In this document: positions 2,630-42,488 of the stretch, one piece after another
Numbering within the stretch: the stretch's first letter is position 1
How the letters are laid out: every line of letters begins with the position of its first letter
Origin: Candidatus Micrarchaeum sp.
Lineage (GTDB): Archaea; SpSt-1190; DYHY01
Reading direction: 5' to 3'
DNA: 64,000 nucleotides
NCBI GenBank assembly: GCA_020723935.1
Contig: DYHY01000004.1
Span: 7,634-71,633, forward strand
Made by a program: the position numbers and the translations under genes
The notes under the pieces: generated by a model
The model's database searches: none
What the model was told of the DNA's origin: nothing
The model's input: only the letters and a program-made list of their open reading frames with translations

Positions 2630-3361
2630 ATGGAACCGCGGATTGTGGGGGTCGGAAAGGACGCTTCCGCCGAGAGGCTTCTCCTCGCCGGCCTGCGCTC
2701 GATAGGCCATTCCCCGGTGAAGAGGAATCCGGAGATCGTCGTCTCCCTCGGGGGCGACGGATCCCTCCTCAAGGCCGAGCGGCTCTATCCTGGCGTCCCG
2801 AAGCTCCCCGTGCGCGACAGGAGCATCTGCGAGAAGTGTGGGGACGGGAGGCTCGGCGCGCTCCTCAACGCCGCCCTCTCCGGGAAGCTCGCCGTGAAGG
2901 AATATGGGAAGCTGGAGGGGCGGGTGCTTCGGAAGGGAAGGCCGGTCTTTCGCGGGATGGCTGCAAACGACGTCGTCGTGCGAAACGACAAGCCCTACCA
3001 CGCACTCAGGTTCTCCCTGAGGATAAATTCAAGGCCCGTGGACGGGATAATGGTCGGCGACGGGATCGTGGTCTCAACGTCCTTCGGCTCCACGGGGTAC
3101 TTCCACTCCGTAACCGGGAGGCACTTCAAGGAGGGCCTCGTCGGCGTCGCGTTCAACAACCCGATGAGGGGCCGGGCGCCCGTGATCGGGAAGGCCCTTC
3201 GCGTGCGCCTGAAAATCGAGAGGAACCCCGCCGTCGTGTGCCTCGACAACGACAGGCGCATCTTCCTCGCAAGGGAGGGGGACGTCGTCGAGGCGAGGCC
3301 CTCGAAGGGGAAGCTGAGGATCCTGGGCGGCTGGACGTTCGGGAACGGGAAGGAACCCTAG
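2630..3361 (+). CDS. nadK: NAD(+) kinase
   Basis: GGDGSLL, NDVVV and DGIVVSTSFGSTGY motifs. Start taken at the internal Met (MEPRIVGVG) of track ORF 2441..3361. Confidence 0.85.
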   Translation: MEPRIVGVGKDASAERLLLAGLRSIGHSPVKRNPEIVVSLGGDGSLLKAERLYPGVPKLPVRDRSICEKCGDGRLGALLNAALSGKLAVKEYGKLEGRVLRKGRPVFRGMAANDVVVRNDKPYHALRFSLRINSRPVDGIMVGDGIVVSTSFGSTGYFHSVTGRHFKEGLVGVAFNNPMRGRAPVIGKALRVRLKIERNPAVVCLDNDRRIFLAREGDVVEARPSKGKLRILGGWTFGNGKEP

Positions 3362-3363
3362 GC

Positions 3364-3693
3364 TAGTCCGGAAAGGCGTCGCTCGTCCCGAGGCATTCCG
3401 AATACTTCGCGAAATTGTCGGCCATGTATTTGCGCCACTGCGCGTCCGTGTAGCCGGGAAGCTTGGCGCAATAGGCGGCGCCCCCGCCGGTGGCGGATGA
3501 GGGGCGCGCCTGCTGCTTCTGCTGCGGCGCTCCGTAGGCCAGGCTCCTGTAGGAAGCGCGATACCCTCTCCCCCAGGAAAGCGCCTCCGAGGGAACCGAG
3601 CATCAGGAGGAGGAGAACTGCTACTGCGCCCGCCTTCGTGAGCAGGTCCCGTCTCACTTTCTTTCCACCGTGCCTAGCCCAGGCATTCCGCAT
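3364..3693 (-). pseudogene. small secreted protein, frameshifted paralog of 3674..3904
   Basis: Signal-peptide-like N-terminus in one frame; C-terminus (CAKLPGYTDAQWRKYMADNFAKYSECLG) in the +1 frame aligns with the neighbouring gene. The shift falls at a GGGGG run. Confidence 0.4.
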
Positions 3694-3904
3694 ACCGGTC
3701 CGGGTGGTGGCCCATGTGCTGTCTCCACGCAGCGTCGGTGTACCCGGCGGGGGTGGCGCACTTGTCGAGGGGGTTCTGCGCCGCGAAAGTCCGCTGCGCT
3801 TGGGCTGCCGTGTAAAGGGGCTTGGGCGCCAGAATCCCCGAAAGCGTCCAGGCGAGCGTCCCGACCGCGAAAAGGAGCAAGACTACCAGGGCTGTCGCCT
3901 TCAT
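3674..3904 (-). CDS. small secreted protein with signal peptide
   Basis: MKATALVVLLLFAVGTLAW signal peptide, then conserved CATPAGYTDAAWRQHMGHHPDRYAECLG. GGAGG-like motif upstream of the internal Met. Confidence 0.5.
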   Translation of the reverse strand: MKATALVVLLLFAVGTLAWTLSGILAPKPLYTAAQAQRTFAAQNPLDKCATPAGYTDAAWRQHMGHHPDRYAECLG

Positions 3905-3993
3905 CGGGCCGCCGGAACTTCCCCCCCTCCCCTGCCGCCCGCCGTCTCCGTGTTCGCGCTCTTCCTTGCCCCTCCGCTCGTTCTCCATGTTTT

Positions 3994-4602
3994 TCATCCT
4001 CCATACCTCGCCACGTATCCTATAGCGAAAACAACCGAAATGAACGATATCGTCAGGACGACCCGCTTGGCGTACTCCAGGTCGCGCCCGAGAAGGAAGT
4101 CGAGGAAGCCGATGCCAGTCACCCTCACGCCAGCCCTCCGGACGTACGAGAGCATCATGAAGGTCCCTAGAACGTTTGAGAATATCGTAGCGAGGAGAAA
4201 CGCCGGCTGGTAGCGGAAGAAGAAGAAGCTCGTCAGGGTGGAGATTCCAATGAGGGGGACGTCGGTCAGGTGGTGCGCGCAGCGGGCGACCATCGACGCG
4301 CCCGAGACTCCTGCGGAGCCCGCGAGCGGGGACGCACCGACCGCGACGAGGCCTGAAGCGTAGGAATAGATCCAGAACTGGAAGGCGGGGAGGGCCGAGA
4401 TGACGAGGACGAAGGGCAGCATCTGCCTGAACTGGGCGACCGCGAGATCGAACGAGTTGAAGACGAGCATTATCGAGAAGTAGAGCGTGGGCATCGCTAC
4501 CAGGCCTGCCAGGGCCGCCAGGGCCGCCAGGGCCGCGAGGATGCGCCCGGATTTGCCGGCGGCCTCCACCTTTCCCGGGCCCGCTTTCGTCCCCGCTTCC
4601 AT
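3994..4602 (-). CDS. integral membrane protein (about 6 TM) of unknown function
   Basis: 202 aa hydrophobic ORF. Last gene of a three-gene minus-strand set with the TRASH and His-rich proteins. Confidence 0.45.
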   Translation of the reverse strand: MEAGTKAGPGKVEAAGKSGRILAALAALAALAGLVAMPTLYFSIMLVFNSFDLAVAQFRQMLPFVLVISALPAFQFWIYSYASGLVAVGASPLAGSAGVSGASMVARCAHHLTDVPLIGISTLTSFFFFRYQPAFLLATIFSNVLGTFMMLSYVRRAGVRVTGIGFLDFLLGRDLEYAKRVVLTISFISVVFAIGYVARYGG

Positions 4603-4603
4603 C

Positions 4604-4873
4604 TCAGTGCCGATGCCTCCCCGCGCCCTTCTTCTCCTCCTCCTTCTCCTCCTTCAGCCCCCCTTCCTCGCCGCCGTGGTCGTGGCTGTGGCGGCCCTTT
4701 CCCGAGAACATCATCCAGAGGTGGAGCGCGGCCATTCCGCTTATCAGAATCATCGAGGCCGTTCCGCCGGAGATCCTCACGCCCAAGAACGGCAGGGCGA
4801 CAACCGCAAGGAGCGGCGCTACGCAGGCGAAGACCATCCAGAAGCCGCTGTCGCCGTCCTTCAGGAATCCCAT
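4604..4873 (-). CDS. small membrane protein with His-rich C-terminal tail
   Basis: Two TM segments, then HSHDHGGEEGG...HRH. Immediately downstream of the TRASH gene. Confidence 0.45.
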   Translation of the reverse strand: MGFLKDGDSGFWMVFACVAPLLAVVALPFLGVRISGGTASMILISGMAALHLWMMFSGKGRHSHDHGGEEGGLKEEKEEEKKGAGRHRH

Positions 4874-5125
4874 CTAGTGGCAGCAGTCTCCTCCGGAGTG
4901 CCCGCGGGATTCCAGCTCGACCTTGCGCTCGAATTTCTCGAGGCAGTTCTTCGAGCAGAACCATTGGCCGTGGCGCTCCGTGGCGCTCCCTTCCTTCCTC
5001 TTCCTCCCGCATATCGGGTCCTTCTTCGTCTCGAACAGTCCGAACAGTTCCCTTCTACTCAGCTCCTTCTTTCCTTTCTCGCAATCTTGCCGGCCTTGCC
5101 CGCAGCCTCGTCCTCGCCGCAGCAA
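4874..5125 (-). CDS. TRASH/YHS-type metal-binding domain protein
   Basis: DPICGRK...WFCSKNCLEKFE matches the TRASH/YHS Cys pattern, like the CopA N-terminus at 15557. C-terminal GGDCCH. Confidence 0.6.
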   Translation of the reverse strand: MLRRGRGCGQGRQDCEKGKKELSRRELFGLFETKKDPICGRKRKEGSATERHGQWFCSKNCLEKFERKVELESRGHSGGDCCH

Positions 5126-5351
5126 GGTGATTCCGGGAACTTCCTGGCCGCTTCCGCCGCCTCGGGGTTCCTCCTGGCGAGATCCTCGAGCGTCACTTTT
5201 TCCCCGCCTCCCGGAGGAACCAGAAGAGCGCGTAGGCGTCGAGGGCGTCGGAGAAACAGTCCATCGCGGCCTTCCTGTCGCCCGCCCCGCCCCTCTTTAT
5301 CCCGACCTCAAGGAGGCGCATCGTTGTCCTGAGGAGGTGCTTTGAGACGCA

Positions 5352-5620
5352 TCACATCTCGCCGGAGGTGTTGCGCACTACTATCTGCTTCTGGTACTTG
5401 CTGCGAAGCTTCCTCACCGCGGAATAGGTGCCGCGGTAAGTGGGATCCTTGGTCTTGACGGCCGCGAAGGCGGGGTGCTCCTCGATTGACACGAGGTTCA
5501 TCACCGCGACCGATATCTCCTGCAGCGTCCCGAGGTCCGACTTTTGGAAGTCTTCGCGCCTTCTTTCGTTTCCGCAACCGTGTTGCCGTTATTGTTGCCC
5601 TTCTTCGTTCTTTTCGCCAT
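5352..5620 (-). CDS. small basic protein with interrupted reading frame
   Basis: MAKRTKKGNNNGNTVAETKEGAKTSKS in one frame; 60-aa protein-like tail (..MNLVSIEEHPAFAAVKTKDPTYRGTYSAVRKLRSKYQKQIVVRNTSGEM) in another. Weak S25e-like ending. Uncertain. Confidence 0.2.
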
Positions 5621-5626
5621 CTTGGA

Positions 5627-6044
5627 TCACATCAGCGCCATCGGCAGTATGTAGCCGCCGATCGCCAGCATCGCGAGGCCCGCGAGGAGCGAGACCGCCC
5701 GATGGCCCGCCTTCTCCGCGCGCTCGATGTTGTCGACGACTCGCCTGTTCGCGGCGATCGCGAGTATCGCTATGAGCGGCAGGACGAACATCATCGCGTT
5801 GTAGACCATCAGGTACATGAACCCCCGGGCGGGATTGCCTATGAGCAGCGACGTTATGGAGAAGTAGATGCCTGACGTGCAGCTGGAGGAGCAGATCCCC
5901 ACAAGGAGCCAAAGGAGGAAGGCCGCGGGGAGGGATGCCCTGCTCGCGAGCTTGACGAAGCGCCCCTTCTGGTATGAACATGGGCTTGAGCAGGAAGAGG
6001 AACGCGATGTAGGAGATTATCCCGACGGCTATCATGAGCGCCAT
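5627..6044 (-). pseudogene. small membrane protein with apparent +1 frameshift
   Basis: MALMIAVGIISYIAFLFLLKPMFIP (track ORF 5589..6044) continues as KGRFVKLASRAS...GGYILPMALM (track ORF 5627..5902) across a GGGG run. Confidence 0.4.
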
Positions 6045-6153: not shown

Positions 6154-7332
6154 TTAAGCCTTCTTCAGCGCGGCCCTCAAATCTTCAAGCAGGTCTTCCT
6201 TCGTCTCGATCCCGACGGAGAGCCTGACGAGGCCCGGCTCGACTGCTATCTGCGAGCCCGCGGTCGACGCGTGCGTCATCGCGAGCGGCACCTCGATTAG
6301 GGACTCCACTCCCCCAAGGGACTCTGCGAGCGGGAAGAGCCGTGTGCCCTCCGCGAGCCTCCTGGCGGCCCGTGCCCCGCCCTTCATCACGACGGAGACC
6401 ATCCCGCCGCCGTTCCTCATCTGCCGCTCCGCGAGGGAGTGCTGCGGATGGGACGGGAGCCCGGGGTAGAGGACGCGGGAGACCTTTGGATGGCCTTCGA
6501 GGAGCTCGGCGATTGCGAGCGCGTTCTCGGCATGCCGCTCCATCCTGACCGCGAGCGTCTTCGTCCCGCGCAGGATGAGGAAGCAGTCCATCGGGCCCGG
6601 GACCGCGCCGATGGCGTTCTGCAGGAACTTCAGGCGGGAATACATCTTCTCGTCGTTTAGGAGGAGCGCGCCCCCAACGACGTCCGAGTGGCCACCCAGG
6701 TATTTCGTCGTCGAATGGACGACGATGTCCGCCCCCAAGGAAAGGGGCCGCTGCAGGTAGGGCGTCGCGAAGGTGCTGTCGACTGCGACCTGCGGCCTCG
6801 CCCGGGACTTGCGGGCCAGATCCGATATCTCGCGTACGTCGCAGAGCGCCATGCGGGGGTTGGTCGGCGTCTCGAGCCAGACTAACTTCGTGTTCGGCAG
6901 GATGGCTTGCGCGACCGCTCCGGAATCCGATCCGTCGACATATGTGAAAGAGAGCCCGTACTGGCGCAGGACGCGCTCGAAGAGCCGGTAGGTGCCGCCG
7001 TAGACGTCGTTGCACGCGACCACGTGGCCTTCGGGTCCTACCGTGCGGAGGACCGTGTCTATCGCCGCCATCCCGGAGGAGAACGCGAGGCTGTGGCGCG
7101 CGCCCTCGAGCGCCGCGAGGTTCTTCTGAAGAGCCGTCCGCGTCGGGTTGTCCGTGCGCGAATAGTCGTATCCCTTGTGCTTCCCTATTCTTTCTTGGGC
7201 GTAGGTGGAAGTCAGGTAGACCGGCGTCATCACGGCGCCTGTCGACGGGTCGGGCGGCTGGCCCGCCCTGACTGCGAGAGTCTCGAATCCCTGTTCCTTC
7301 CCTTTCAGAATGCCCTTGTTCACGTAGGTCAT
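6154..7332 (-). CDS. cystathionine gamma-synthase/gamma-lyase family PLP-dependent enzyme
   Basis: 392 aa with the Cys/Met-metabolism PLP fold. PLP-lysine motif VHSTTKYLGGHSDVVGG. Confidence 0.85.
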   Translation of the reverse strand: MTYVNKGILKGKEQGFETLAVRAGQPPDPSTGAVMTPVYLTSTYAQERIGKHKGYDYSRTDNPTRTALQKNLAALEGARHSLAFSSGMAAIDTVLRTVGPEGHVVACNDVYGGTYRLFERVLRQYGLSFTYVDGSDSGAVAQAILPNTKLVWLETPTNPRMALCDVREISDLARKSRARPQVAVDSTFATPYLQRPLSLGADIVVHSTTKYLGGHSDVVGGALLLNDEKMYSRLKFLQNAIGAVPGPMDCFLILRGTKTLAVRMERHAENALAIAELLEGHPKVSRVLYPGLPSHPQHSLAERQMRNGGGMVSVVMKGGARAARRLAEGTRLFPLAESLGGVESLIEVPLAMTHASTAGSQIAVEPGLVRLSVGIETKEDLLEDLRAALKKA

Positions 7333-8402
7333 GTCGTTCCCCTTCCAAGCGTCTTGCTCTTTTTCTTCTTTTTCTTCTTCTTCTTCTTCTTCTCCCGCTC
7401 TTGCTCCGCGCCCCTGTTGCCGCGGAAACGCAGGACATGGGCCGCCAAAACTATCACGAGCAGGAGGAGGGCGCCCCCTAGCACCTTAGGATAGGGCCCG
7501 GAGGAAGAGGAGAGCGCCCTGCCCTGCACCGAATAGAAGTACTGCTTGAGGTGGAGGAAATCCCAGGTGTTGACGACGGAAGTCCCCCTGAATACGACAA
7601 ACGACAGGCCGATGAGCGCGAGGAACGCGCCCGACACCAGGTTCGTCGTGTGCAGCAGCAGGTCCTTCCCGAACAGGCGGACGCGCACCTCTTTTCCCCT
7701 GATAAGCGGGCTCTTCGCGAGGCCTGTGGAATCGTAGAAGACAGACAGGATGAAGAGCGGGGCGAAGATGCCCAGGGAATACGCGCCCATAAGGAGGCTA
7801 GCGTAGAGGACGTTCCCGAGGAGCGCCGCGACGGAGAGAATCCCGCTCAGTATCGGCCCGACGCAGGCGGTCCAGCCCAGGGCGAAAAGGGTGCCGGAGA
7901 CGAAGACCCCCGCGACGCCGTCGCCGCCGGGAGCCGGGGCGGTTCTCGGCCGGATGAAGGAGGAGAATCCCTTGCCGAGGGCGGTCATGATTCCCATCGC
8001 CATCAGGACGAGCCCCGCCACGAGGACGAGCTCCGGCCTCTGGAGCTTCAGGAGCGATTGCTCGCCGACGAATCCGGCGACCGCGCCGAACGCCATGAAA
8101 ACCACCGCGACCCCTAGCGAGAACGCGAGGGTCATCTTCGTCACTTCCGTTTTGCCTCCCGGCCGGAAGGTGTAAGAGAAGTACGCGGGAAGGAGCGGGA
8201 GGACGCAGGGAGAGAGGAGTGTGAGGGCGCCGGCAAAGAACGCGATGAGGAAGGAGATCTTCGCCTGGAAGTCCCTGGCATAGCCCTGGTTATAGTCCTT
8301 TATCTTCTGGAGGGCCGGCGGGAGAGCCGATGCGTCCGCCGCGAGGGCGGGCGCCAGGAGGACGAGCGCCAGCAGCGCCCGGCCCAGATCCATCCTATCC
8401 AT
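7329..8402 (-). CDS. ccdA: cytochrome c-type biogenesis protein CcdA (DsbD-family) with 100-aa C-terminal extension ending in poly-Lys
   Basis: LSPCVLPLLPAYF and a second conserved Cys in the TM core. Extra TM helices. EKKKKKKKKKKK tail encoded by a (TTC)n run. Confidence 0.75.
   Translation of the reverse strand: MDRMDLGRALLALVLLAPALAADASALPPALQKIKDYNQGYARDFQAKISFLIAFFAGALTLLSPCVLPLLPAYFSYTFRPGGKTEVTKMTLAFSLGVAVVFMAFGAVAGFVGEQSLLKLQRPELVLVAGLVLMAMGIMTALGKGFSSFIRPRTAPAPGGDGVAGVFVSGTLFALGWTACVGPILSGILSVAALLGNVLYASLLMGAYSLGIFAPLFILSVFYDSTGLAKSPLIRGKEVRVRLFGKDLLLHTTNLVSGAFLALIGLSFVVFRGTSVVNTWDFLHLKQYFYSVQGRALSSSSGPYPKVLGGALLLLVIVLAAHVLRFRGNRGAEQEREKKKKKKKKKKKSKTLGRGTT
7358..7393. repeat. (TTC)n microsatellite encoding the poly-Lys tail of CcdA
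   Basis: ctttttcttctttttcttcttcttcttcttcttc on the plus strand. Confidence 0.8.
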
Positions 8403-8406: not shown

Positions 8407-8991
8407 TCAGTTCACCGCCAAGGTTCCCCTCATCAAGCTGTGCCCGGAGCCGCAGGGGCGGTTGCAGAAGAATGCGAAACGCCCCTGCCTGTCCGCGGTG
8501 AACTCGACGACGACCGGCGCGTCCCCGGGGGAGAAGGACTGCGTCGCAACCCCATAGTCGGGAAGGGTGGGGCCGTGCGTCCCCGACGTGCTTGTTAGAA
8601 CGAGCCTAACGCGGTCTCCCTGGCTCACGGTTGTGGTCGACGAGTTCCAGCCGAAGGAGTATGCCTCGACCTTTATCTCCTTCATGGGCGCCTGGCCCGC
8701 CGTCGAGGAGGTGGGCGAGCTGGAGGATGAAGAGGAGGGGGATGAAGAGGAGAGGGATGAAGAGGAAGGGGATGAAGAGGAGGGGGATGAAGAGCCCTGC
8801 GAGCTTGATGTCGAACTGGATGGACTTCCTGAGCCAGCCGAAGGCATCCCCGCGTCCTGCGCTGGCCCCGTCACGCATCCCGCGACCAGGACCGCCGCCG
8901 CCAGCAGAACGGCCGCCACAACCGCAAAGGAGGCGGCCGTCTCGGGCATAGCCTTCCCGATGTTTCCCCTGAATCCCGATGCGTATCCCAT
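8407..8991 (-). CDS. cupredoxin-like (CuA-type Cys/His/Met motif) lipoprotein with Ser-rich linker
   Basis: Lipobox LVAGC after a hydrophobic signal. About 45 aa of SSSP-type linker. C-terminal FFCNRPCGSGHSLMRG resembles the CuA CxxxCGxxHxxM motif. Confidence 0.6.
   Translation of the reverse strand: MGYASGFRGNIGKAMPETAASFAVVAAVLLAAAVLVAGCVTGPAQDAGMPSAGSGSPSSSTSSSQGSSSPSSSSPSSSSLSSSSPSSSSSSSPTSSTAGQAPMKEIKVEAYSFGWNSSTTTVSQGDRVRLVLTSTSGTHGPTLPDYGVATQSFSPGDAPVVVEFTADRQGRFAFFCNRPCGSGHSLMRGTLAVN
8690..8810. repeat. 12-nt tandem coding repeats (ggatgaagagga-like) encoding the Ser-rich linker
   Basis: Five near-identical units. Antisense reading gives the EDEEEGDEEE artefact ORF 8567..9220. Confidence 0.7.
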
Positions 8992-10319: not shown

Positions 10320-10556
10320 CTAACAGCCACCCACCTGCTGGGGAAGACTCGCAAGGCTCTTGGGAACCGAGCCTCCCGACGCCGCGGCGATGCCTCCGCT
10401 GTTGCTGCCTGCGGCCTCGGACGCTGCGAAGAGCTCCCCGAGGGAAACCTTCCCGTCCGAGACCTTCGTCCTAAGCTCGTTCAGCTGGAACGTCTGCGCC
10501 GCGGAGACTACCACGAACACCGCGAGAATCGCCGCGAGTATCTTCGTCTGGTCCAT
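10320..10556 (-). CDS. small membrane-anchored protein ending in the SLPQQVGGC motif
   Basis: N-terminal TM ILAAILAVFVVVSAAQTF. C-terminus ...SLASLPQQVGGC followed by a stop. Confidence 0.45.
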   Translation of the reverse strand: MDQTKILAAILAVFVVVSAAQTFQLNELRTKVSDGKVSLGELFAASEAAGSNSGGIAAASGGSVPKSLASLPQQVGGC

Positions 10557-10603: not shown

Positions 10604-11416
10604 TTAACACCCGCCGACCTGGCTCGGGAGGCTCGCGGCGCCCGGCCCCGCGTCCCCGCCCGCCACATTGAGACCCAAGGTAACCATGTCCTTGGGGAAG
10701 AACAGGGTCTTCCACTTCATCGCCTCGTAGAGTATCTGCCCGTCGGAGTAGTTCGGCCTGTTCGCCGAGAGCCAGAGGGCCACGGAGAGCATCGCCGGGT
10801 TGTGCTGGCAGCCGCAGAGCGAGTTGCCGTTGGAGTCAGCTCCGGTCGGCCCTATCCCGCAACAGTACTCGCAGGAAATGCCGACCGGCTTGGTAGCGAA
10901 GCCTATGAACCTCTGGAACGCCTCAGGGTTGTTCTTCTTTACGTCGTCCTTGAGGCTCGGATAGGATTTCGCGAGGAGGTCGAGCGACTTTATCGGGTCG
11001 TCGAAGCTCACTCCCATCTCGGTGCCGTACTCGGGGGTGCCCGTCGGGAACATCGCCGCCATCGCCCCATCGGCCGTCTTCATCTTGTCGAGGGGGAAGA
11101 CCGCGGCGATCGTGTCGGCCGTGGATTTTATCTTCGAGACGTCAACCTTGGAGAGGTCAGCTCCGTCGGAGCTCCCGGCCTGGAGGACGCTCGAGAGAAA
11201 CCCTATCGAGGGCCCTTTGGCCCCGCCGCTGCCGTAGAGGGCGCCGGATATCGCGAATATCTGGGCCTGGTTGACTGCGAGGAGTATCGCCGCTATGACA
11301 ATGAGCGCTATCACCGGGGCGCCCAGCCTCATCGCGCCGGATTCCCTCTCTGCCGCCCCCTTCTCGGGAGCTGCCTTGGCCGCAGTAGCTTGCGTAGCAT
11401 GATGCCTTTCCGCCAT
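10604..11416 (-). CDS. membrane-anchored Cys-rich protein ending in SLPSQVGGC (paralog of 10320..10556)
   Basis: TM VIALIVIAAILLAVNQAQIF. Middle domain with CEYCCGIGPTG...CGCQHNP. C-terminus AASLPSQVGGC. Start possibly the internal Met at 11332. Confidence 0.5.
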   Translation of the reverse strand: MAERHHATQATAAKAAPEKGAAERESGAMRLGAPVIALIVIAAILLAVNQAQIFAISGALYGSGGAKGPSIGFLSSVLQAGSSDGADLSKVDVSKIKSTADTIAAVFPLDKMKTADGAMAAMFPTGTPEYGTEMGVSFDDPIKSLDLLAKSYPSLKDDVKKNNPEAFQRFIGFATKPVGISCEYCCGIGPTGADSNGNSLCGCQHNPAMLSVALWLSANRPNYSDGQILYEAMKWKTLFFPKDMVTLGLNVAGGDAGPGAASLPSQVGGC

Positions 11417-11466: not shown

Positions 11467-11486
11467 CCGTGAAAAAACAGTGAAAG
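11467..11486 (+). promoter_or_regulatory. 20-bp motif CCGTGAAAAAACAGTGAAAG (direct GTGAAA half-sites) overlapping the regulator start codon; TATATTTAAAA box upstream
   Basis: Reverse-complement copy at 13252..13272. AT-rich box at about 11441-11452 in a divergent intergenic region. Confidence 0.45.
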
Positions 11487-13228
11487 AAGGGGAAAACCAG
11501 CCTGCCGCGCAGCAGCGGGGCGTTTTCGCGAGCCAGAGGTCGGTCCTGGCGCTCTCCTTGGCGCTCCTCCTGATGGGCGCGGTGGTCCTGGTGAACTTCC
11601 TGTCCTTCTCCAAGGTCGGGGGGGTTATGGAAAGCCAGCTCCTGGACCGCCAGCAGATAGCGGCCGACTACGCGGCGTCAAGGATCGAGGAGCACATCCA
11701 TCAGGTCAGTATGGAGGTGACGACGCTTTCCAGCTTCCCCGCGCTGAAGAACCTCGACCTGAGCCAGTGCAGCGGGGACGTGAAAATAATACACCCCAGC
11801 CTCGAGGGCAAGACGAAGGTACTCCTGCGGGTTGACGCTCTCGGGAACATCGTGGAATGCTCGTCCCCGAATTACAAGGGATACGTTGGCTTGAACGTCA
11901 GGAACAAGGACTATTTCAAAGTCCCGGCCGAGACGGGGGCTTCCTATGTCTCGGGCCTCGCGAGGGACGGGAGCGACTACAATGTCTTCGTCTCCGCCCC
12001 CATCTTCGAGGGGGGGTCTGGAGGAACATACCCCAATAACGGCGAGTTCGGGGGAATACTCCTAAGCATCGTGGGCCTCCAGGACCTCTACGACCTCTAC
12101 ATACACCCAATAGGGCCGATGGGCAGGGACCTCTTCGTCCTCGCGAGCGTGGATGCGGGCGACACCGTGATGAAAAGCCAGGGCGCCCCTGACCTGGGCG
12201 GCCTCGGCAAGGTGCACGAGATAAGGGATTATGCCGGGACGGGCAGGACCATAGCCGTCTCCTCCGACCTCTCCCTCGGGAGCGAGAAGTTTCGCCTCTT
12301 CATCCTCACACCCCTCGCCAACGCAGACAAGGAGATACGGGACGTCAGAGCGGGCTACCTGTTCTCCCTGTTCTTGGCCGTTTCGGCCATCCTGGGCGCC
12401 CTCCTTCTCGCGGCTTCGGCGTACCTGTCGCGCGAGAGGATAAGGACGCAGCTCGCGCGGACCACAGAGACGCTCGAGAGCCTCGGGATCACGGTCGAGA
12501 CGGAACGGAGCGGATATTCTCCTACCGACATCGTCCTCGAGCCCCACAAGGTCTACCTCCTTAAGGAGGACGGGGAGACGAGCCCCCACGACCTCTTCAT
12601 TGGGATGCTCTCACATGGCTTCGCGGGCCTCGGCATAGTGAGGGACGACCCCAGGGAGCTGCGGAAGAAGTACAGCCTCAAGAAGACTTCGTTCATATGG
12701 CTCTCGGAGGCGGGCGGGGGCCGGGGCGTCCCGGCCGAGACCAAGATCGAGACGCTCCTCGGCCTCGCCAGGGAGTTTGTGGAGAGGAGCGAGAAGAGCG
12801 TCATATTGATAGACCGGCTCGACTACCTGATATTCGAGAACGGCTTCGAGCGGGTCCTCAAGGCGGTGTACGCCCTCCGCGACCTCGTCGCGAGGAGGAA
12901 GTGCGTCGTGATAATCTCGGCCAACCCCGCGGTCATACCCAAGGAGCAGATGGAGGCGTTCAGCGCGGAGACGATCGACCTCTTCGGCGGCAGGGCCGGG
13001 GCCGGCCTCTCCAAGGACGAGGCCGAGCTGCTCTCGTTCGTGAACGAGGGGAACGTCGCGAGCAGGCTCGTCTCCTACACGGACGTGACGGAGCAGCTTG
13101 GGATAACGAAGCCCACCGCCCGAGCCAAGATCCGGCGCCTGCAGGACGCGGGCTTCCTCTCCGTCGAGAAGGTCGGGCGGGTGAAGGCCGTGCGGATAAC
13201 GTCCCTGGGCAGGAAAATCATTTCCTGA
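11480..13228 (+). CDS. membrane-bound one-component regulator: N-terminal TM, extracytoplasmic sensor domain, second TM, DUF835-like (P-loop-less RecA/KaiC-like) domain, C-terminal winged HTH
   Basis: TM helices at about 22-42 and 295-318. Cytoplasmic part has IWLSE...VILIDRLDYLIFENGFE...CVVIISANPAVI. C-terminus ...QLGITKPTARAKIRRLQDAGFLSVEKVGR. GTG start. Confidence 0.65.
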   Translation: MKEGENQPAAQQRGVFASQRSVLALSLALLLMGAVVLVNFLSFSKVGGVMESQLLDRQQIAADYAASRIEEHIHQVSMEVTTLSSFPALKNLDLSQCSGDVKIIHPSLEGKTKVLLRVDALGNIVECSSPNYKGYVGLNVRNKDYFKVPAETGASYVSGLARDGSDYNVFVSAPIFEGGSGGTYPNNGEFGGILLSIVGLQDLYDLYIHPIGPMGRDLFVLASVDAGDTVMKSQGAPDLGGLGKVHEIRDYAGTGRTIAVSSDLSLGSEKFRLFILTPLANADKEIRDVRAGYLFSLFLAVSAILGALLLAASAYLSRERIRTQLARTTETLESLGITVETERSGYSPTDIVLEPHKVYLLKEDGETSPHDLFIGMLSHGFAGLGIVRDDPRELRKKYSLKKTSFIWLSEAGGGRGVPAETKIETLLGLAREFVERSEKSVILIDRLDYLIFENGFERVLKAVYALRDLVARRKCVVIISANPAVIPKEQMEAFSAETIDLFGGRAGAGLSKDEAELLSFVNEGNVASRLVSYTDVTEQLGITKPTARAKIRRLQDAGFLSVEKVGRVKAVRITSLGRKIIS

Positions 13229-14584: not shown

Positions 14585-15526
14585 ATGACTTCCACTGGCG
14601 CCTACATTTTCTCGTACCTGCTCTATATGGCGGTGCTCTCGGGCGCCGCCCTCTACGTCTGGAAGTACAGGAAGGGCCTCGACGAGATGTACGGCATGAT
14701 GATGGGAATGACGTTTGGCACGGTCGCAGGTCTTGCGACCGGCCTCTTCTACGCCCTCCCGAGCGGCGACTTTGTCGGCGGGGCGATTGTCGGGACCGTG
14801 GCCGGGCTCCTCTTCGGGATACTGCTAGGGGTGATCGGCGGGCCCCTCGGGATAATGGAGGGCGTTATGGGCGCCTTCATGGGGGGCTTCATGGGCTCGA
14901 TGACGGGGCAGATGGCGCGCCCGTTCCCGCTGGGCGCGTTCTCTCCGGTCTTCGCGGCGATATTCCTCGCGATGATGGCGGGGATCACCTATGCCGCGGA
15001 AACGGGCAAGACCTGCTGCGCTCCCGCGGGGGGTAAGCCGGAGGCGCCCGAGAGGCCGAAGCTGGTGAACCCGTCGGGCAAGTTCGTCGCCACGTGGACA
15101 GTCGTCGCCGCAATCCTCCTCTTCGCGAGCTTCGCGATAGACCTCTCGCCGTACTCCGCACAGGGCGCCCAGTCGACTGGCACGCAGAGCACGGCTCTTC
15201 CGGCGTCGCTTCGGGCGCTCACGGAGGAGCAGCAGACCCAGGCAGTCCAAAAGGACGGCTACCAGGAAGCGTCATTTAGGGTGACCGCGGGGAGGTACAC
15301 GCCTAACGTCATAGTCGTCAAGGCTGGGACGCCGCTTAGGCTGAACATCGCAGCAGACAGGAACGCCGGATGCGGGACTGACATCGTCTTCCCGGATCTC
15401 AGGGTGCGCTCGCTCATCCCCCCGGGGACGTCCAAGACGGTCGAGGTGGGGACCCCGTCCGCGGGGAACCATTCGTTCTCCTGCTCCATGGGCATGTTCC
15501 GCGGAAAAATCGTCGCGGTCGGTTAG
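14585..15526 (+). CDS. Met-rich polytopic membrane protein with C-terminal cupredoxin-like domain
   Basis: MMMGMTFG...GVMGAFMGGFMGSMTGQM TM region. C-terminal VKAGTPLRLNI...CGTDIVFPDL...HSFSCSMGMFRGKIVAV. Confidence 0.55.
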   Translation: MTSTGAYIFSYLLYMAVLSGAALYVWKYRKGLDEMYGMMMGMTFGTVAGLATGLFYALPSGDFVGGAIVGTVAGLLFGILLGVIGGPLGIMEGVMGAFMGGFMGSMTGQMARPFPLGAFSPVFAAIFLAMMAGITYAAETGKTCCAPAGGKPEAPERPKLVNPSGKFVATWTVVAAILLFASFAIDLSPYSAQGAQSTGTQSTALPASLRALTEEQQTQAVQKDGYQEASFRVTAGRYTPNVIVVKAGTPLRLNIAADRNAGCGTDIVFPDLRVRSLIPPGTSKTVEVGTPSAGNHSFSCSMGMFRGKIVAVG

Positions 15527-20215: not shown

Positions 20216-20323
20216 GGCCGGGCCGCGGCGGGGTCTGGAGGGCGCCGAACGAAGAGAGGGGCCCGGAACGGCCGGGCCGCGGCGGGGTCTGGAGGGCGCC
20301 GAACGAAGAGAGGGGCCCGGAAC
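20216..20323. repeat. perfect tandem duplication (2 x 54 bp) that includes the 3' terminal 10 nt of tRNA-His
   Basis: ggccgggccgcggcggggtctggagggcgccgaacgaagagaggggcccggaac at 20216-20269 and again at 20270-20323. Confidence 0.9.
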
Positions 20324-20385
20324 GGGAATCGAACCCGTGTTTGGGGATCCACAGTCCCCCAGTCTGCCACTAACTTATCCAGGCC
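20314..20385 (-). tRNA. tRNA-His (anticodon GUG) with extra 5' G-1
   Basis: Hand-folded cloverleaf. Acceptor GCCUGGA/UCCGGGC with one G-U. Anticodon stem GGGGA/UCCCC, loop CUGUGGA. T-arm ACGGG-UUCGAUU-CCCGU. Discriminator C73 pairs with G-1. TTTATAAAAG box about 30 nt upstream. No encoded CCA. Confidence 0.85.
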
Positions 20386-24460: not shown

Positions 24461-24547
24461 TGGTGCAGGAGGCCGGATTCGAACCGACGAACCCTCTAGG
24501 GGAGCAGATCTTGAGTCTGCCGCGTTTGACCGCTCCGCCACTCCTGC
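24461..24547 (-). tRNA. tRNA-Leu (anticodon CAA), long variable arm, CCA encoded
   Basis: Acceptor GCAGGAG/CUCCUGC. Anticodon stem GCAGA/UCUGC, loop CUCAAGA. Variable arm about 17 nt. T-arm CGGUUCGAAUCCG. Ends ACCA. TTTAAAA box about 25 nt upstream. Confidence 0.85.
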
Positions 24548-26294: not shown

Positions 26295-28922
26295 CTAGAC
26301 AAGGAAGCTCACGTATCCCTTGCGCCCGGCCCATTTCAGGGCTTCGTAGGCGACGAGCACGCTCGAAGCAGTCAGGAACGCGAAGACCCAGTCGAGGGGG
26401 CCAAGGGCGACCGTCCGGAAGATCCTCTGCAGGAACGGGACGTACACTATCAGGACGTGCGCCGACATCAGGACGGCGATGGATGTCACGCCGACCCTGT
26501 TCGTGAGGATCCCTATCTTGAAGGCGGACTCGTCGAAGGAGCGGCAGTTAAGGACGTTGAAGACCTGGAAGATGGCGAACGTCGTGAAGGCCACGGTGGT
26601 CGCGCGCGTCTGGTCGCCCGCGAGGAAGTAGGCCCAGAATATGGAGAGGGTCCCTAGCGCCATTATCAAGCCCGTTATCGCCATGTTGATCAGCATGTTC
26701 CTGGATATCAGCGGCTCGCGCATCCCCCTGGGCTTCCTGGACATCAGGTTCCGCGCGCGCGTGGGCTCCAGGCCCAAGGAGAGGGCAGGGGGCCCGTCGA
26801 TCGAGAGGTTTATCCACAGGAGCTGGACGGGGAGTATCGGGAGTGGGAGGGAGATGGCGATGCTCAGAAGTATCAGGAGGATCGCGCCGATGTTGGTCGA
26901 GAGCTGGTAGCGGATGAACTTCCTGATGTTCTCGTATATCGCCCGCCCCTCCTCGACGGCCCCCACGATGCTCGCGAAATTGTCCTCTGTGAGGACCATC
27001 GCAGAGGCCTCCTTCGCCACGTCCGTCCCCGTGAGGCCCATGGAGATCCCGATGTCTGCCTTCCTGAGGGCGGGCGCGTCGTTCACGCCGTCCCCCGTCA
27101 TCGCGACGACGTAGTCCTTCTGCTGCAGGGCCTTCACGATCTTGAGCTTGTGCTCGGGCGAGACGCGGGCGTAGATGACCATCTCCTCGACGATGTCCTC
27201 CAGGGACGTGACCTCGTCTATCTCGCGGCCAGTGAGGACCTTGGGCTCCAGGCCCAGGGACTTGGCTATGGCGATCGCCGTGCCGGCGTGGTCGCCCGTT
27301 ATCATGACGACCTTTATCCCCGCGCGCATGCACCTCTCTATCGCGCCCTTCACCTCCTCGCGCAGGGGGTCCATCATCGCCTGCAGGCCCACGAACACGA
27401 GGTTTTCCTCGTGCAGGTGCTCGCCGGGGAAGAGGGGCTTGTATGCGAAACCGAGGATCCTGAGGCCCTCGGAGGAGAAGACGTCGTTCGCCTCCAGGGC
27501 CTCCTTCCTGTGGCGCTCAGTCATCTGGAACTCGCGGCCGCCGTAGAGTATCTTTGTGCACTTGGCTATCACATCGTCGGGCGCGCCCTTGACTAGGAGC
27601 ATGGGGTTTGCCCCGAGGAGGTTCACCGTGCTCATGAGCTTCCTCTCGCTCGTGAACTCGAACTCATCTATCCTCTTGAAGACGCGCTCCAGCTCCTCCT
27701 TGTGTATCTCGCCCTTGGCGGCGCTCACGATGAGCGCAATCTCCGTCGGGTCCCCCGAGACCTTGTCGTGGAAGAAGGAGGCGTTGTTGCAGAGGGCTCC
27801 TATCTGGAGGAGCATCTCGAGGGCGGGCGTGCGGTCGCCAAGGATCTTGCCGTGGACGTTGTAGCCCTGGCCTGATACCTCACACGTGCGCCCGTCGTAG
27901 AAGACCTTGGTCACGGTCATCTGGTTCTTCGTGAGGGTCCCCGTCTTGTCCGTGCAGATGACGTTCACGCACCCGAGGGTCTCAATGGACGCGAGCCTGC
28001 GCACGAGGACGTGGCGGTGGACCATCCTCCTTATCCCGACGGCGAAGGTTATCGTCATCACGATGGGCAGGCCCTCGGGGAGCGCGGCGACTATCATCGC
28101 GACGGATGTGAGGAGGACGTCCAGGAACGGCCACTTCTTGACGAACAGGAGGAAGCCGAAGACGAGGACGGAGAGCGCGAGGATCCCGTAGGAGAGCTGC
28201 TTGCTCATCCTGTCTATGCTCTTCTGGAGGGGCGTGCTCTCGAACTCTATCCCCTCTATGAGCTTGGCGATCTTGCCTATCTCCGTGCGGGGGCCCGTCT
28301 CGACGACGACCGCCGCGGCCCGCCCGGTCGCGACGACCGTGCCCGAATAGGCCATGTTCTTCCTCTCCGCAAGGGGCGTGTCCTTGTGCAGCGTCTCGGC
28401 GTGCTTCCGGGACGGCGACGATTCGCCCGTGAGCGCGGCCTCTAGGACGGAGAAGGAATGATGCTCGGTGATCCTCGCGTCCGCCGGGACGCGGTCGCCC
28501 GTCTCCAGGAATATGATGTCGCCGCGCACGAGCTGGGGTGCCTCTGCTAGCTGCTTGAGGCCGTCGCGCAGGACCTTCACCTTGAGCGCGGACATCCTCT
28601 TGAGGGCCGCTATCGCGTTCTCGGCGTTCCTCTCCTGCGCGAAGCCTATCACGGCGTTTATGAGGAGAATCAGGGCGATCGCGAGGGACTCGGCCCGGTC
28701 GCCGAGGATGAACGAGAGGACGGATGCGGCGAGGAGCAGGAGGACGGGGAGGCTCTTGAACTGCTCGAGGAAGAGCACTGCGTCGTGGCGGCGCTTGGCC
28801 TCCGCGAGGAGGTTCCTCCCCTCCGCGGAAAGGCGCCTGGAAGCCTCGGCCGACGAGAGCCCCTCCTTCCCGGTCCCAAGCTCCGCAAGGAGGACGTCGA
28901 TGTCCTTCGCATGATGCGACAT
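26295..28922 (-). CDS. P2-type cation-transporting ATPase (Ca2+/SERCA-PMCA-like)
   Basis: 875 aa. ICTDKTGTLT, MITGDHAGTAIAIA, MTGDGVNDAPALRKADIGISMG, 10 TM. Confidence 0.9.
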   Translation of the reverse strand: MSHHAKDIDVLLAELGTGKEGLSSAEASRRLSAEGRNLLAEAKRRHDAVLFLEQFKSLPVLLLLAASVLSFILGDRAESLAIALILLINAVIGFAQERNAENAIAALKRMSALKVKVLRDGLKQLAEAPQLVRGDIIFLETGDRVPADARITEHHSFSVLEAALTGESSPSRKHAETLHKDTPLAERKNMAYSGTVVATGRAAAVVVETGPRTEIGKIAKLIEGIEFESTPLQKSIDRMSKQLSYGILALSVLVFGFLLFVKKWPFLDVLLTSVAMIVAALPEGLPIVMTITFAVGIRRMVHRHVLVRRLASIETLGCVNVICTDKTGTLTKNQMTVTKVFYDGRTCEVSGQGYNVHGKILGDRTPALEMLLQIGALCNNASFFHDKVSGDPTEIALIVSAAKGEIHKEELERVFKRIDEFEFTSERKLMSTVNLLGANPMLLVKGAPDDVIAKCTKILYGGREFQMTERHRKEALEANDVFSSEGLRILGFAYKPLFPGEHLHEENLVFVGLQAMMDPLREEVKGAIERCMRAGIKVVMITGDHAGTAIAIAKSLGLEPKVLTGREIDEVTSLEDIVEEMVIYARVSPEHKLKIVKALQQKDYVVAMTGDGVNDAPALRKADIGISMGLTGTDVAKEASAMVLTEDNFASIVGAVEEGRAIYENIRKFIRYQLSTNIGAILLILLSIAISLPLPILPVQLLWINLSIDGPPALSLGLEPTRARNLMSRKPRGMREPLISRNMLINMAITGLIMALGTLSIFWAYFLAGDQTRATTVAFTTFAIFQVFNVLNCRSFDESAFKIGILTNRVGVTSIAVLMSAHVLIVYVPFLQRIFRTVALGPLDWVFAFLTASSVLVAYEALKWAGRKGYVSFLV

Positions 28923-31701: not shown

Positions 31702-33129
31702 ATGGGAATACGCCTCTACAACACGCTCACGAGGAAGGTCGAGGAGTTCTCGCCGATGGGCGAGACGGTCGGCCTCTACACCTGCGGCCCGACGATATAC
31801 AACTTCGCGCACATCGGGAACTTCCGCGCCTACGTCTGCCAGGACGTCCTCAAGCGCCACCTGCGCCACAGGGGCTTTGCCGTGCGCCACGTCATGAACC
31901 TCACGGACGTCGACGACAAGACGATACGCGACTCGCAGAAGGAGGGCGTCGTCTTGAAGGCCTTCACGGACAGGTACAAGAAGGCGTTCTTCGAGGACAT
32001 CGCGGCGCTCAGCATCGTCCCCGCCGAGGCCTATCCCGAGGCGACCGCCTACATCGAGGACATGATCTCCCTCATCGAGTCGCTAATGAGGAAGGGCGTC
32101 GCGTACCGGGGCGAGGACGGCTCGGTCTACTACAACATAAGGAAGTTCCCGGAGTATGGTAAGCTCTCCAAAATAAACCTCGAGGGGCTCCTCGCCGGCG
32201 CGAGGGTCAAGCAGGACGAGTATTCCAAGGAGCAAGCCAACGACTTCGCGCTCTGGAAGGCGTACGACCCCCCGGACGGGATGGTCTACTGGGAGAGCCC
32301 CTGGGGCAGGGGGCGCCCCGGCTGGCACATCGAATGCTCCGTGATGAGCATGAGGAACCTCGGGGAGACCTTCGACATACACTGCGGGGGGATAGACCTC
32401 ATCTTCCCCCACCACGAGGACGAGATAGCGCAGAGCGAGGCCGCCACAGGGAAGAAGTTCGCGAACTACTGGGTACACAACGAGCACCTCCTCGTCAACG
32501 GGAAGAAGATGTCCAAGTCCATGGGGAACTTCTACACCCTGCGCGACGTCCTTTCCAGGGGCTACTCGGGGAAGAGTGTGAGATACCTCCTCATCTCGAC
32601 GCAATACCGTCAGCAGCTGAATTTCACCTTCCAGGCCCTGGACGCCGCGCAGGCGGCCGTCGGCAGCCTCGAGGAGCTCGTGAGGAACCTGAAGGCGCGC
32701 GAGGAGGCGGGAAGGGGTGCGGCTAGGTCGGACATGCTCCCCGCGCTCGTCGAATCCTCTAGGCGCGCGTTCGATTCCGCGATGGACGCCGACCTCAACA
32801 CCCCCGAGGCGCTCTCCGCGGTGTTCGCGTTCGCGCACGAGATGAACAGGCTCATGGGCTCCCTTTCGGCCGAGGACGCGCAGGACGCCCTGAGGCTCCT
32901 CTCGGAGTTCGACTCCGTCCTGGGGGTCCTGGGGGAGGCGTTCTCGGAGAAGGAGGCCCTCCCGCCGGAGGTGGAGGAGCTCGTCGCGAAGCGCGAGGAG
33001 GCGCGGGCCGGCAGGGACTGGAAGATGGCCGACTCCTTCCGCGCCCAGATAGAGGCTTTCGGCTATGCAGTGCAGGACCGCAAGGACGGGGCGCCCGCAG
33101 TCAGGAAAATACGACCCGAACGTCGCTAG
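31702..33129 (+). CDS. cysS: cysteine--tRNA ligase
   Basis: HIGN (HIGH) and KMSKS motifs. Zn-binding Cys pattern. 475 aa. Confidence 0.95.
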
Positions 33130-33541
33130 GCGGCCGGGGCTTCCAGGAGGAGACCTCCTTGTGCAGCCTGTCGAGGAGGTCGCGCGCCTCGGGGCCTATG
33201 TATTGCAGCTCGACTGACAGGCGCGTGGGCTCGAAGGTCGCCGAGACGAGCGGCTGGCTGTTGTAGAAGTTGGACCAGGTCATCCTCGCTATCGCCTTGT
33301 GCGGACGCTCCTCGGAGAGCTGGTCCGAGTACATCGCGACCAGGCCCTCGCGGTCGATAGGCTTGGCCAGGTCCTTGTAGTGGATTATCTTGGAATATTG
33401 CGGGTAGAATGCCATGCCTGCCTGCGGCTCGGTCGTGACGTCGTGGCGGAACTCCAGGACGTGCACCTGCTCGGGCTCGCCGAGTATCGAGAGGAGGCGT
33501 CTGAGGAATTCGGGGTGCCATGCGACGGGGCTCTTCACCAT
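33101..33541 (-). CDS. hypothetical protein downstream of cbf5
   Basis: 146 aa, protein-like composition. No family recognised. Confidence 0.4.
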   Translation of the reverse strand: MVKSPVAWHPEFLRRLLSILGEPEQVHVLEFRHDVTTEPQAGMAFYPQYSKIIHYKDLAKPIDREGLVAMYSDQLSEERPHKAIARMTWSNFYNSQPLVSATFEPTRLSVELQYIGPEARDLLDRLHKEVSSWKPRPPSDVRVVFS

Positions 33542-33553
33542 GCGGGTGCGGAA

Positions 33554-34543: not shown

Positions 34544-34607
34544 TGTGCTCAGCCGGAGTGCGCGGCCCCCTCTTTTAAAACCGCGCCGCCCGCCGCTCCC
34601 GGGCCGC

Positions 34608-35072: not shown

Positions 35073-35084
35073 CCTAGGGCCCCC

Positions 35085-36542: not shown

Positions 36543-36601
36543 CTGTGTTTCGAATCCTTCCCTTCAGTTCCCCGGCCGACCGCGCGGCCCGCGCCTTCCG
36601 G

Positions 36602-37057: not shown

Positions 37058-37109
37058 GATGTGACTAACTATGCCTCGCCTGCAAGCCGTTTTTGGGTGT
37101 TTATAAAAC

Positions 37110-38472: not shown

Positions 38473-38499
38473 CTCAGATCGTTTCTCCTTCCTTGCCTT

Positions 38500-39860: not shown

Positions 39861-39861
39861 C

Positions 39862-40754: not shown

Positions 40755-40761
40755 TTCCTTT

Positions 40762-41340: not shown

Positions 41341-41363
41341 GTTGTTCTCTTTCCTGCGTCCGT

Positions 41364-41747: not shown

Positions 41748-41775
41748 TTTCTCTTCGTTCTCCTTCCTTGGTTCG

Positions 41776-41935: not shown

Positions 41936-41946
41936 ATGTCGGACTA

Positions 41947-42486: not shown

Positions 42487-42488
42487 CT

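Follow-up and report, generated by a model that had tools for sequence, protein, structure and literature searches.

The 64,000-nucleotide stretch of a Candidatus Micrarchaeum sp. contig analysed here (DYHY01000004.1, called the window below) carries on its minus strand, at 3994-5125, three adjoining open reading frames (ORFs), which encode a TRASH/YHS-domain protein, a small membrane protein of 89 amino acids and a membrane protein of 202 amino acids. These three ORFs are genuine genes. They form the 3' part of a longer minus-strand operon, approximately 3363-6044, which is most likely a version of an unnamed conserved gene cluster that has diverged and in part decayed. Profile comparison places the 202-amino acid protein in an uncurated family of membrane proteins with a Cys-Cys-x-His-His motif (the CCxHH family). 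On the basis of the conserved Cys/His motif, the metal-binding domains fused to family members, the metal-related genes beside them and the CopA-like and cupredoxin genes of the window, we suggest a role of the cluster in metal handling at the cytoplasmic membrane, the metal being a thiophilic one and probably copper, and put the probability of this at roughly 0.55. The features of the operon, in the direction of transcription, are as follows.

5645-5977, minus: DsbD/CcdA-like remnant, the C-terminal ~110 amino acids of a 386-amino acid thioredoxin-fused membrane protein
5193-5620, minus: geneU, with its N-terminus (ATG 5620) in a different frame from the rest
5352-5354, minus: in-frame TGA within geneU, at an invariant Trp site (GEM-stop-CVSKH against GEMWCASKH)
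5059-5196, minus: CC peptide, 45 amino acids, M.LEDL...PEA....KF.eSPCCGED plus a Lys-rich tail
4874-5125, minus: TRASH/YHS gene, 83 amino acids from TTG
4604-4873, minus: DUF2933-like gene, 89 amino acids
3994-4602, minus: CCxHH-family gene, 202 amino acids
3674-3997, minus: HHPD-anchored protein, membrane-anchored and extracytoplasmic, C.TPaGYTD..W..HMGHHPDRYAEC
3363-3693, minus: second HHPD-type paralogue (tblastn E 3e-5 at 3393-3470)

The original prediction, made from the letters and their translations, described a near-gapless set of three genes for a TRASH protein, a His-tailed small membrane protein and a membrane protein, and this description holds. In the ORF list the spacing is 0 nt between the first two genes and 1 nt between the second and third, and the stop of the 202-amino acid gene shares 4 nt with the downstream HHPD gene. 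The G+C content at third codon positions (GC3) of the three ORFs is 0.77-0.87, as against about 0.5 in wrong frames and 0.8-0.9 in the real genes of the window; the GC content of the genome is ~63%.

Loci holding CCxHH-family homologues are given L-numbers here (L001, L017 and so on). In five of them (L039, L017, L030, L088 and L091) the gene order is a thioredoxin-fused DsbD-like protein of 386 amino acids, geneU, a CC peptide of ~40 amino acids, the CCxHH protein, the HHPD-anchored protein and sometimes a DUF2933 protein. The window has the order DsbD-like remnant, geneU, CC peptide, TRASH, DUF2933-like, CCxHH and HHPD-anchored protein, and differs in that the stand-alone YHS/TRASH and DUF2933-like genes lie between the CC peptide and the CCxHH gene.

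The CCxHH family of membrane proteins

A word-indexed search with the 202-amino acid protein finds only the protein itself, and its relatives surfaced only in an exhaustive phmmer/HMMER search of 1.84 billion representatives, which returned 332 representatives at E<=1e-3, of which 69 have E<=1e-10. The best non-self match has 35% identity (E 4.8e-19), and among ~15 billion proteins there is no relative above 35% identity. A family hidden Markov model (HMM) built without the window protein nevertheless recognises residues 26-195 with 115.8 bits (E 1e-37). Family members score 198-252 bits, a comparison that is generous to them because they were inside the model. The 202-amino acid protein is on this evidence assigned to the family as a diverged member.

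Alignments of the family show a near-invariant motif, SM-x-ACC-x-HH-x-x-D-x-x-P. The full set of invariant or near-invariant positions comprises Q, S, M, CC.HH, D, P, YQ and SN. In the window protein the corresponding segment reads ARCAHHLTD, the first Cys being replaced by Arg (codon CGC), so that the ACCxHHxxD pattern is not matched. Among 260 motif-bearing sequences 247 have CC.HH and a single one, the window protein, has RC.HH. The protein does retain C108, H110, H111, D114, P116, Q75, YQ and SN.

Members of the family occur in two sizes, of ~180 and ~300 amino acids. A C-terminal extension is present in 26 of 65 aligned homologues (~40%), for example P0012, P0013 and P0019, and is nearly always a His-rich domain of ~110 amino acids outside the membrane with conserved NTHxGxLDF...GGHHRSG. 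This domain has no Pfam match, except for weak matches to DUF5643 in three members. Single family members are fused to HMA, HMBD, YHS, TRASH or ICMT/PEMT domains. A profile search retrieves 276 proteins, all of them named 'hypothetical', from Methanoperedens, Hydrothermarchaeota, DPANN lineages and Chloroflexi, and a pattern scan of one genome per species finds at least 467 loci among 600 pattern matches, in many archaeal and bacterial phyla.

The original prediction took the membrane protein to be uncharacterised, and we agree: the 202-amino acid protein has no match in Pfam, NCBIfam or PDB, a profile search of PDB sequences with the family found nothing, and none of 65 family members has a Pfam match over the membrane domain. 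There is no likeness in sequence or fold to MerT/MerC, CopD, CDF, NicO, HupE/UreJ or DsbB/VKOR/CcdA, and membership of a well-known non-metal family, which would have undone the prediction, was not seen in any of the sequence and fold comparisons.

An AlphaFold2 (AF2) model of the 202-amino acid protein made with 86 homologues has a mean predicted local distance difference test score (pLDDT) of 83.3 and contains six to seven helices; the single-sequence model is unusable (pLDDT 51.6). Hydropathy and the positive-inside rule, applied to Lys/Arg counts in the alignment, point to five spans and a short outer helix; the N-terminus would be inside the cell and the C-terminus outside. This topology agrees with the fusion of outside-type domains at the C-terminus, and suggests that the third membrane helix carries the CCxHH..D..P segment at its outer end. 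The earlier label of a protein with six transmembrane helices is thus right as to a helical membrane protein; six to seven helices are modelled, and the hydropathy analysis would replace the sixth span by an outer helix.

The accompanying genes and the state of the locus

The TRASH assignment of the original prediction is borne out by the Cys motif. The protein carries DPICG...WFCSKNC..F (KKDPICGRKRKEGSATERHGQWFCSKNCLEKF), which fits the Cys motif DP-x-CG...aromatic-FCS-x2-C-x3-F, and it matches the Pfam family YHS (PF04945) over residues 35-67 and profile positions 2-38 of 47 (E 1.2e-4; 22.5 bits, under the gathering score of 30.3). Over 37 amino acids it is 41% identical to the YHS domain of the CopA-like ATPase of the window, a domain that itself scores above threshold (43.4 bits). 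The TRASH domain lies at ~4925-5025 and the protein ends in GGDCCH. The sole canonical start of the gene is TTG 5125, which makes it overlap the CC-peptide gene by 67 nt. GC3 in the TRASH frame rises only from ~5050 and gives no support at TTG 5125, and the 83-amino acid product was not found in the protein collection. A start at CTG 5062, overlapping the CC-peptide stop (CTGA), would give a protein of 62 amino acids, a size typical of stand-alone YHS proteins.

The 89-amino acid protein has two hydrophobic spans and a His/Glu/Lys-rich tail with six His in the last 33 residues, in keeping with its earlier description as a His-tailed small membrane protein. It clusters with small proteins encoded next to CCxHH genes, which 18 of 83 loci possess, in each case on the strand of the CCxHH gene and at a median distance of 132 nt. 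Six of eight sampled members of this two-span cluster match DUF2933 (PF11666; best E 1.9e-20). The window protein has no Pfam match at E<=1, PF11666 included. It is recognised by an HMM of 17 neighbour-encoded homologues (39.3 bits, E 3e-14) and by BLAST against three cluster members (E 1e-6 to 5e-5), and on these similarities we class it as a diverged DUF2933-like protein. The motifs CC..P of the first span and LCPxMH of the second are absent from it; MVFACVAP and SGMAALHLWMM stand in their place, so that one Cys and the His are kept and three of the four Cys of the two conserved motifs are gone.

The HHPD family has the pattern C..PxGYtD..W..HMsHHPDrY.EC and is found in 18 of 84 loci, where most of its genes follow the CCxHH gene after 2-18 nt or encode the C-terminal part of a fusion with the CCxHH protein (L019, L020, L063). 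The HHPD protein of the window is 53% identical to its L039 homologue (E 2e-19). The second paralogue lacks the HHPD motif (it has YMADNFAKY), the frame of its signal anchor differs from that of its Cys-flanked domain and GC3 switches frame at ~3560-3600; it is probably a pseudogene.

At the other end of the operon the DsbD-like remnant aligns to residues 269-383 of the 386-amino acid proteins of L017 and L039 (47-49% identity, E ~1e-27), and nothing in the first 12 kb of the window corresponds to the first 268 residues of these proteins. The listed ORF of the remnant is 5627-5902. Beside it, at 5935-6044, a short membrane-like N-terminus (MALMIAVGIISYIAFLF...) is present in another frame.

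Proteins of the geneU family are soluble, of 115-180 amino acids, and encoded just upstream of CCxHH genes. They share the invariants MNL, EEH and GE.WC..KH. Database hits of the family number at least 7973; every one is named 'hypothetical', and those with an organism name all come from metagenome-assembled genomes (MAGs) of DPANN-type archaea; it has no Pfam match and, in a profile search, no PDB match. Two stretches of the window, 5352-5504 and 5193-5321, belong to one such gene, since the L017 protein aligns in a single frame across the internal stop (5537-5196, 52.6% identity, E 8e-38). In that frame the conserved DL....E...AV precedes the first start codon, and the Lys-rich N-terminus MAKRTKKG... 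(ATG 5620), which resembles the MAKKKE... of homologues, is out of frame with DLGTLQE..., with a shift at ~5545-5560. The internal TGA and the out-of-frame N-terminus mean that geneU of the window carries a nonsense codon and a frame break. Reading of UGA as Trp or selenocysteine was considered and dropped: TGA terminates four genes of the operon (the 202-amino acid, 89-amino acid, geneU and CC-peptide genes), and selenocysteine at an invariant Trp is implausible.

These lesions raise the question of whether the module still works in this genome. It may be a relic, in which the three intact-looking ORFs are drifting survivors, and we regard this as a possible though not the favoured state of the locus; it is compatible with a metal role of the family as a whole. 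Besides the nonsense codon at the invariant Trp of geneU and its frame break, a relic would account for the first gene of the cluster being cut to its last 110 amino acids, the frameshift in the second HHPD paralogue, the TRASH gene without a clean start, the RCAHH segment unique among 260 sequences, the loss of three of four motif cysteines from the DUF2933-like protein and the distance of the 202-amino acid protein from all relatives. The remaining ORFs of the window are long, clean and tightly packed, which makes the lesions local and a generally poor sequence quality unlikely. The lesions may still be sequence errors, however, and the loss of Cys could instead reflect a change of metal. 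The genes for the 202-amino acid protein, the 89-amino acid protein, the CC peptide and the HHPD protein are moreover uninterrupted with genome-typical GC3 (0.82-0.87), and most invariant residues are kept, including the full HHPD motif. The site may have changed to ligands other than thiolates, or else the locus is decaying; decay is favoured by the damage to geneU, the truncation of the first gene and the frameshift in the paralogue.

Gene neighbourhood and proposed role

The ORFs within 3.5 kb on either side of the family gene were clustered for 83 loci. The labels below rest on naive ORFs, single-linkage clusters and simple motif patterns with no matched genomic background. Neighbours were found as follows.

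HMA/YHS/P1B-ATPase: 43 of 83 loci by cluster, 27 of 83 by strict motif
DsbD_TM-like: 25 of 83 loci
small two-span His-tailed (DUF2933-like): 18 of 83 loci
Cys-rich anchored protein (CxxCC...CGC): 14 of 83 loci
Redoxin (Redoxin/AhpC): 11 of 83 loci
DsbA (DsbA/Thioredoxin_4): 8 of 83 loci
ICMT/PEMT: 6 of 83 loci
PadR-TRASH regulator: 5 of 83 loci

The figure of 43 loci is an upper bound, as it includes shadow ORFs and fragments, and the strict motif gives 27-30. At least one of six clusters (HMA/YHS/P1B-ATPase, DUF2933 and PadR-TRASH; DsbD-like, Redoxin and DsbA) is present at 65 of the 83 loci. Near the family gene the density of YHS and ATPase motifs is several times that found farther along the same contigs: 3727 near ORFs contain 18 and 22 of them respectively, and 1261 far ORFs contain one of each. 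In the called-gene table two YHS genes and a DsbD gene adjoin the Methanoperedens homologue (L001). Beside the L006 homologue are a YHS gene, a Cu ATPase and DUF411, beside that of L002 DsbD, PCYCGC, CcoG-like, CcmH and thioredoxin genes, and on a Micrarchaeota contig a cupredoxin, an HMA protein and a BlaR1/BlaI-type pair. In the window itself a Cupredoxin_1 protein and a CopA-like P1B ATPase lie together as a canonical pair for copper export, at a distance of 10 kb from the module, which marks the region as a copper-homeostasis neighbourhood. The original idea of a metal-associated module around an uncharacterised membrane protein therefore agrees with the metal-domain fusions and with the YHS/HMA/P1B-ATPase, DUF2933 and DsbD-like neighbours.

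Several observations weigh against a metal role, either of the family or of the window copy. The strict HMA/YHS/ATPase motif is missing from more than half of the 83 loci, and 18 of them have none of the six metal or redox clusters within 3.5 kb; the neighbour labels are themselves coarse, for the reasons given above. Around the motif the confidence of the AF2 model is at its lowest (pLDDT 60-76). The window copy is without ligands conserved elsewhere, both in RCAHH and in the cysteines of the DUF2933-like protein, its 202-amino acid protein scores about half the bits of typical members (in the comparison generous to them), and it sits among damaged genes and may not work. Finally, a redox role would explain the strong association with DsbD, DsbA and thioredoxin genes just as well.

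Such a role would make the cluster an extracytoplasmic thiol-disulfide redox system, in which disulfides are exchanged between DsbD-like or thioredoxin-like partners on one side and the CC pair in the membrane together with the Cys-flanked HHPD protein on the other, in the manner of DsbB/VKOR or CcdA. The DsbD-like, Redoxin/AhpC and DsbA/Thioredoxin_4 neighbours listed above count in its favour, as do the paired cysteines of many partners and the thioredoxin-fused DsbD-like protein that opens the cluster in close relatives. However, the His-His pair and the Asp are as conserved as the cysteines, the fusions are to HMA, HMBD, YHS, TRASH and GGHH domains and none is to a thioredoxin fold, YHS/ATPase/DUF2933 neighbours occur at 51 loci against 34 with redox neighbours, and DsbB, VKOR and CcdA resemble the CCxHH protein neither in sequence nor in fold. 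We therefore think a redox system unlikely as the main function.

If the cluster does handle a metal, the predicted topology would allow the components to be placed in order. Outside the cell the metal would be bound by the HHPD protein, or in other genomes by the fused GGHH domain, and the CCxHH..D..P segment at the outer end of the third helix would form a further outer site. The metal might then be passed through or along the small membrane proteins, that is the CCxHH and the two-span DUF2933 proteins, and on the cytoplasmic side be exchanged with Cys tails or domains, for which the CC peptide, the DCCH-ending TRASH protein and geneU are candidates. The DsbD-like and thioredoxin-like neighbours could keep the outside cysteines reduced. 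The relay could serve either uptake or as an aid to efflux. Our more specific and tentative proposal, which we hold to be rather less probable than a metal role as such, is that geneU, the CC peptide, the CCxHH protein, the HHPD-anchored protein and DUF2933 together make up a membrane relay of several components, as yet undescribed, which would carry copper or some other thiophilic metal, have a new membrane fold with an outer-leaflet Cys-Cys-x-His-His site and be widespread in DPANN and other archaea and in several bacterial phyla. If this were true, it could be the main route of copper uptake or handling in small-genome archaea without known importers, and the lineage of the window would be either remodelling the system toward fewer thiolate ligands or losing it.

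Metal-homeostasis gene clusters are known as a kind; the present set of components is undescribed. A literature search on the CCxHH motif gave unrelated text only, and none was found for the 202-amino acid, geneU, CC-peptide and HHPD families, all of which are without a curated model. The nearest working analogy is a relay of the MerT/MerP type. MerT, MerC and MerF are small metal-uptake proteins that span the membrane few times, carry a vicinal Cys pair within a helix close to the outer face and act with a metal-binding protein outside and Cys acceptors in the cytoplasm. The module is not homologous to them: sequence and fold similarity are absent, CCxHH adds essential His and Asp, and there is no MerA, MerP or MerR near the module. 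DsbD/CcdA proteins (PF02683) are frequent neighbours, with one in the window in addition to the remnant, and like the CCxHH protein rely on membrane-embedded Cys. The CCxHH protein has no similarity to them and differs in helix count and motif, so they are partners and not homologues.

The cop clusters of archaea, as PMC7830388 reports them from Ettema 2003, contain stand-alone TRASH metallochaperones of the CopM type and CopR/CopT regulators that combine a helix-turn-helix (HTH) with TRASH (PMC7830388). The window resembles these in having a small TRASH/YHS Cys motif in an archaeal region with a CopA-like P1B ATPase, and its TRASH protein (62-83 amino acids) resembles CopM in the stand-alone format of ~60 amino acids. 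It differs in that copA lies on the opposite strand at a distance of ~10 kb and the genes directly beside the TRASH gene encode membrane proteins, in the YHS score under threshold and in an Arg for the Met of the usual CGM (CGR). As it has no HTH it is not a CopR/CopT regulator.

DUF2933 (PF11666) occurs in bacterial operons of the type copA-cupredoxin-DUF2933-ICMT (PMC8478169). The 89-amino acid protein shares with it the two spans, the His-rich tail and the neighbourhood of copper genes, and ICMT/PEMT genes, with one ICMT/PEMT fusion, also accompany the CCxHH family. The differences are that the window protein misses the Pfam model and is without the CC..P and CPxMH cysteines, and that the described bacterial operon has no CCxHH protein, which in the window is the partner of the DUF2933-like protein.

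The uptake and hand-over of copper and other thiophilic metals are poorly known in archaea, especially in DPANN and in methane oxidisers such as Methanoperedens. Uncurated families that travel together beside copper genes make a testable candidate system and deserve curated models. The window copy stands apart from the family and has damaged genes beside it; its main use is to illustrate decay or a remodelling of ligands.

Short upstream frames and other genes of the window

The original prediction noted two protein-like frames upstream of the TRASH ORF, at 5193-5321 and 5059-5196. Both are coding, as judged from high GC3 and conserved homologues in other loci, so that a lack of conservation, which would have spoken against them, was not observed. 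It read them, MRLLEVGIKRGG...FWFLREAGKK and VTLEDLARRNPEAAEAARKF...PCCGED..., as possible pieces of one regulator running into TRASH. The first is the C-terminal half of the separate conserved geneU. The L017 protein ends at the equivalent place (...FWLIQEMGGKK against ...FWFLREAGKK), so the stop at 5193-5195 is native. The second is the CC peptide, MTLEDLARRNPEAAEAARKFPESPCCGEDEAAGKAGKIARKERRS, with its own start and native stop. Its GTG start shares 4 nt with the geneU stop (GTGA), and ORFs of 38-41 amino acids with the same pattern trail geneU in L017, L039, L030, L088 and L091, overlapping it or nearly abutting it (tblastn E 1e-8 and 2e-6). Two of them, as examples, end in ...KKFLQSPCCEEDKRQAKSEKK and ...DFLENPCCGEDEGKGK. 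In L021, L028 and L061, which are MAGs of Nanoarchaeia, Woesearchaeota and Micrarchaeota, a tail ...KKIVDCCKE is fused to geneU. Judged from these homologues the CC peptide is an intact conserved micro-gene and not a fragment; genes of ~40 amino acids such as this are easily missed by gene callers. Two further candidates were set aside. A match to the CC peptide in L049 from an iterated HMM looks spurious and was ignored, and a programmed -1 frameshift at GGGAAAAAG, between geneU and the CC peptide, was rejected because this is an ordinary 4-nt NTGA overlap (ATGA in L017) between native ends.

A single CopR/CopT-type regulator-TRASH fusion split by indels in A/G runs is accordingly very improbable: three close coding frames, each -1 from the previous (GC3 tracking from 5620 to 5060 passes through all three), lie in purine-rich surroundings, and PadR-TRASH regulators adjoin CCxHH genes in five other loci, but the stops at both junctions are native, start and stop overlap there by 4 nt in the ordinary way, the CC peptide is an ORF of its own (38-45 amino acids) in at least five other loci, neither frame has an HTH or a Pfam match at E<=1, and none of the known geneU-CC fusions extends into TRASH. 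The suspicion of breakage upstream was thus right for geneU, with its TGA and shifted N-terminus, and wrong for the proposed regulator-TRASH junctions, which are unbroken.

The type of regulator-TRASH fusion sought in the original prediction does exist in other genomes, in the form of PadR-TRASH. PadR regulators with a C-terminal TRASH-like motif (C.HCGC...FCCK.CAK.F) adjoin CCxHH genes at L011 4621-5049, L012 4203-4637 and three more loci.

A scan of the locus for sigma-70 promoters and terminators gave no more than chance, and a TTTAWATA box was not found in the locus; both results are uninformative for an archaeon. The other features of the window are as follows.

7329-8402, minus: DsbD_TM/CcdA-like membrane thiol reductase (PF02683, E 8e-18)
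8407-8991, minus: cupredoxin-like lipoprotein with a CuA-like motif
10604-11416, minus: CxxCC...CGC anchored protein
11480-13228, plus: DUF835 and winged-helix protein
14585-15526, plus: Cupredoxin_1 protein, 313 amino acids
15557-18196, plus: CopA-like P1B ATPase, 879 amino acids, with N-terminal YHS, HMA, CPC and DKTGT
20314-20384 and 24464-24547: tRNA genes
26295-28922, minus: type II P-type cation ATPase
33000-48100, minus: ribosomal-protein/SecY block

The genes for ribosomal proteins, SecY and AglB identify the window as core archaeal chromosome of high GC; its archaeal nature is read from S4e, the SecY plug, AglB/STT3 and DUF835. The DsbD_TM gene at 7329-8402 overlaps a cystathionine gamma-synthase gene (6154-7332) by 4 nt, and an (AAG)n run at 7340-7400 (minus) encodes ~12 Lys at the C-terminus of its product. 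The cupredoxin-like lipoprotein has a long Ser-rich linker and a cupredoxin-type C-terminal domain ending in FCNRPCGSGHSLM with a CuA-like CxxxCxxxHxxM pattern; its Pfam match to COX2 is weak (E 6e-4) and its GC2/GC3 profile (second and third codon positions) is less clean than those of its neighbours. Gly-Gly-Cys C-termini are found in the window at 10320-10556 (minus) and 10604-11416 (minus) and in L017 at 2898-3185, in the forms ...PQQVGGC and ...PSQVGGC, and as ...MVGGC and ...GGCGA in other loci. This C-terminus could be a signal for sorting, lipidation or metal binding.

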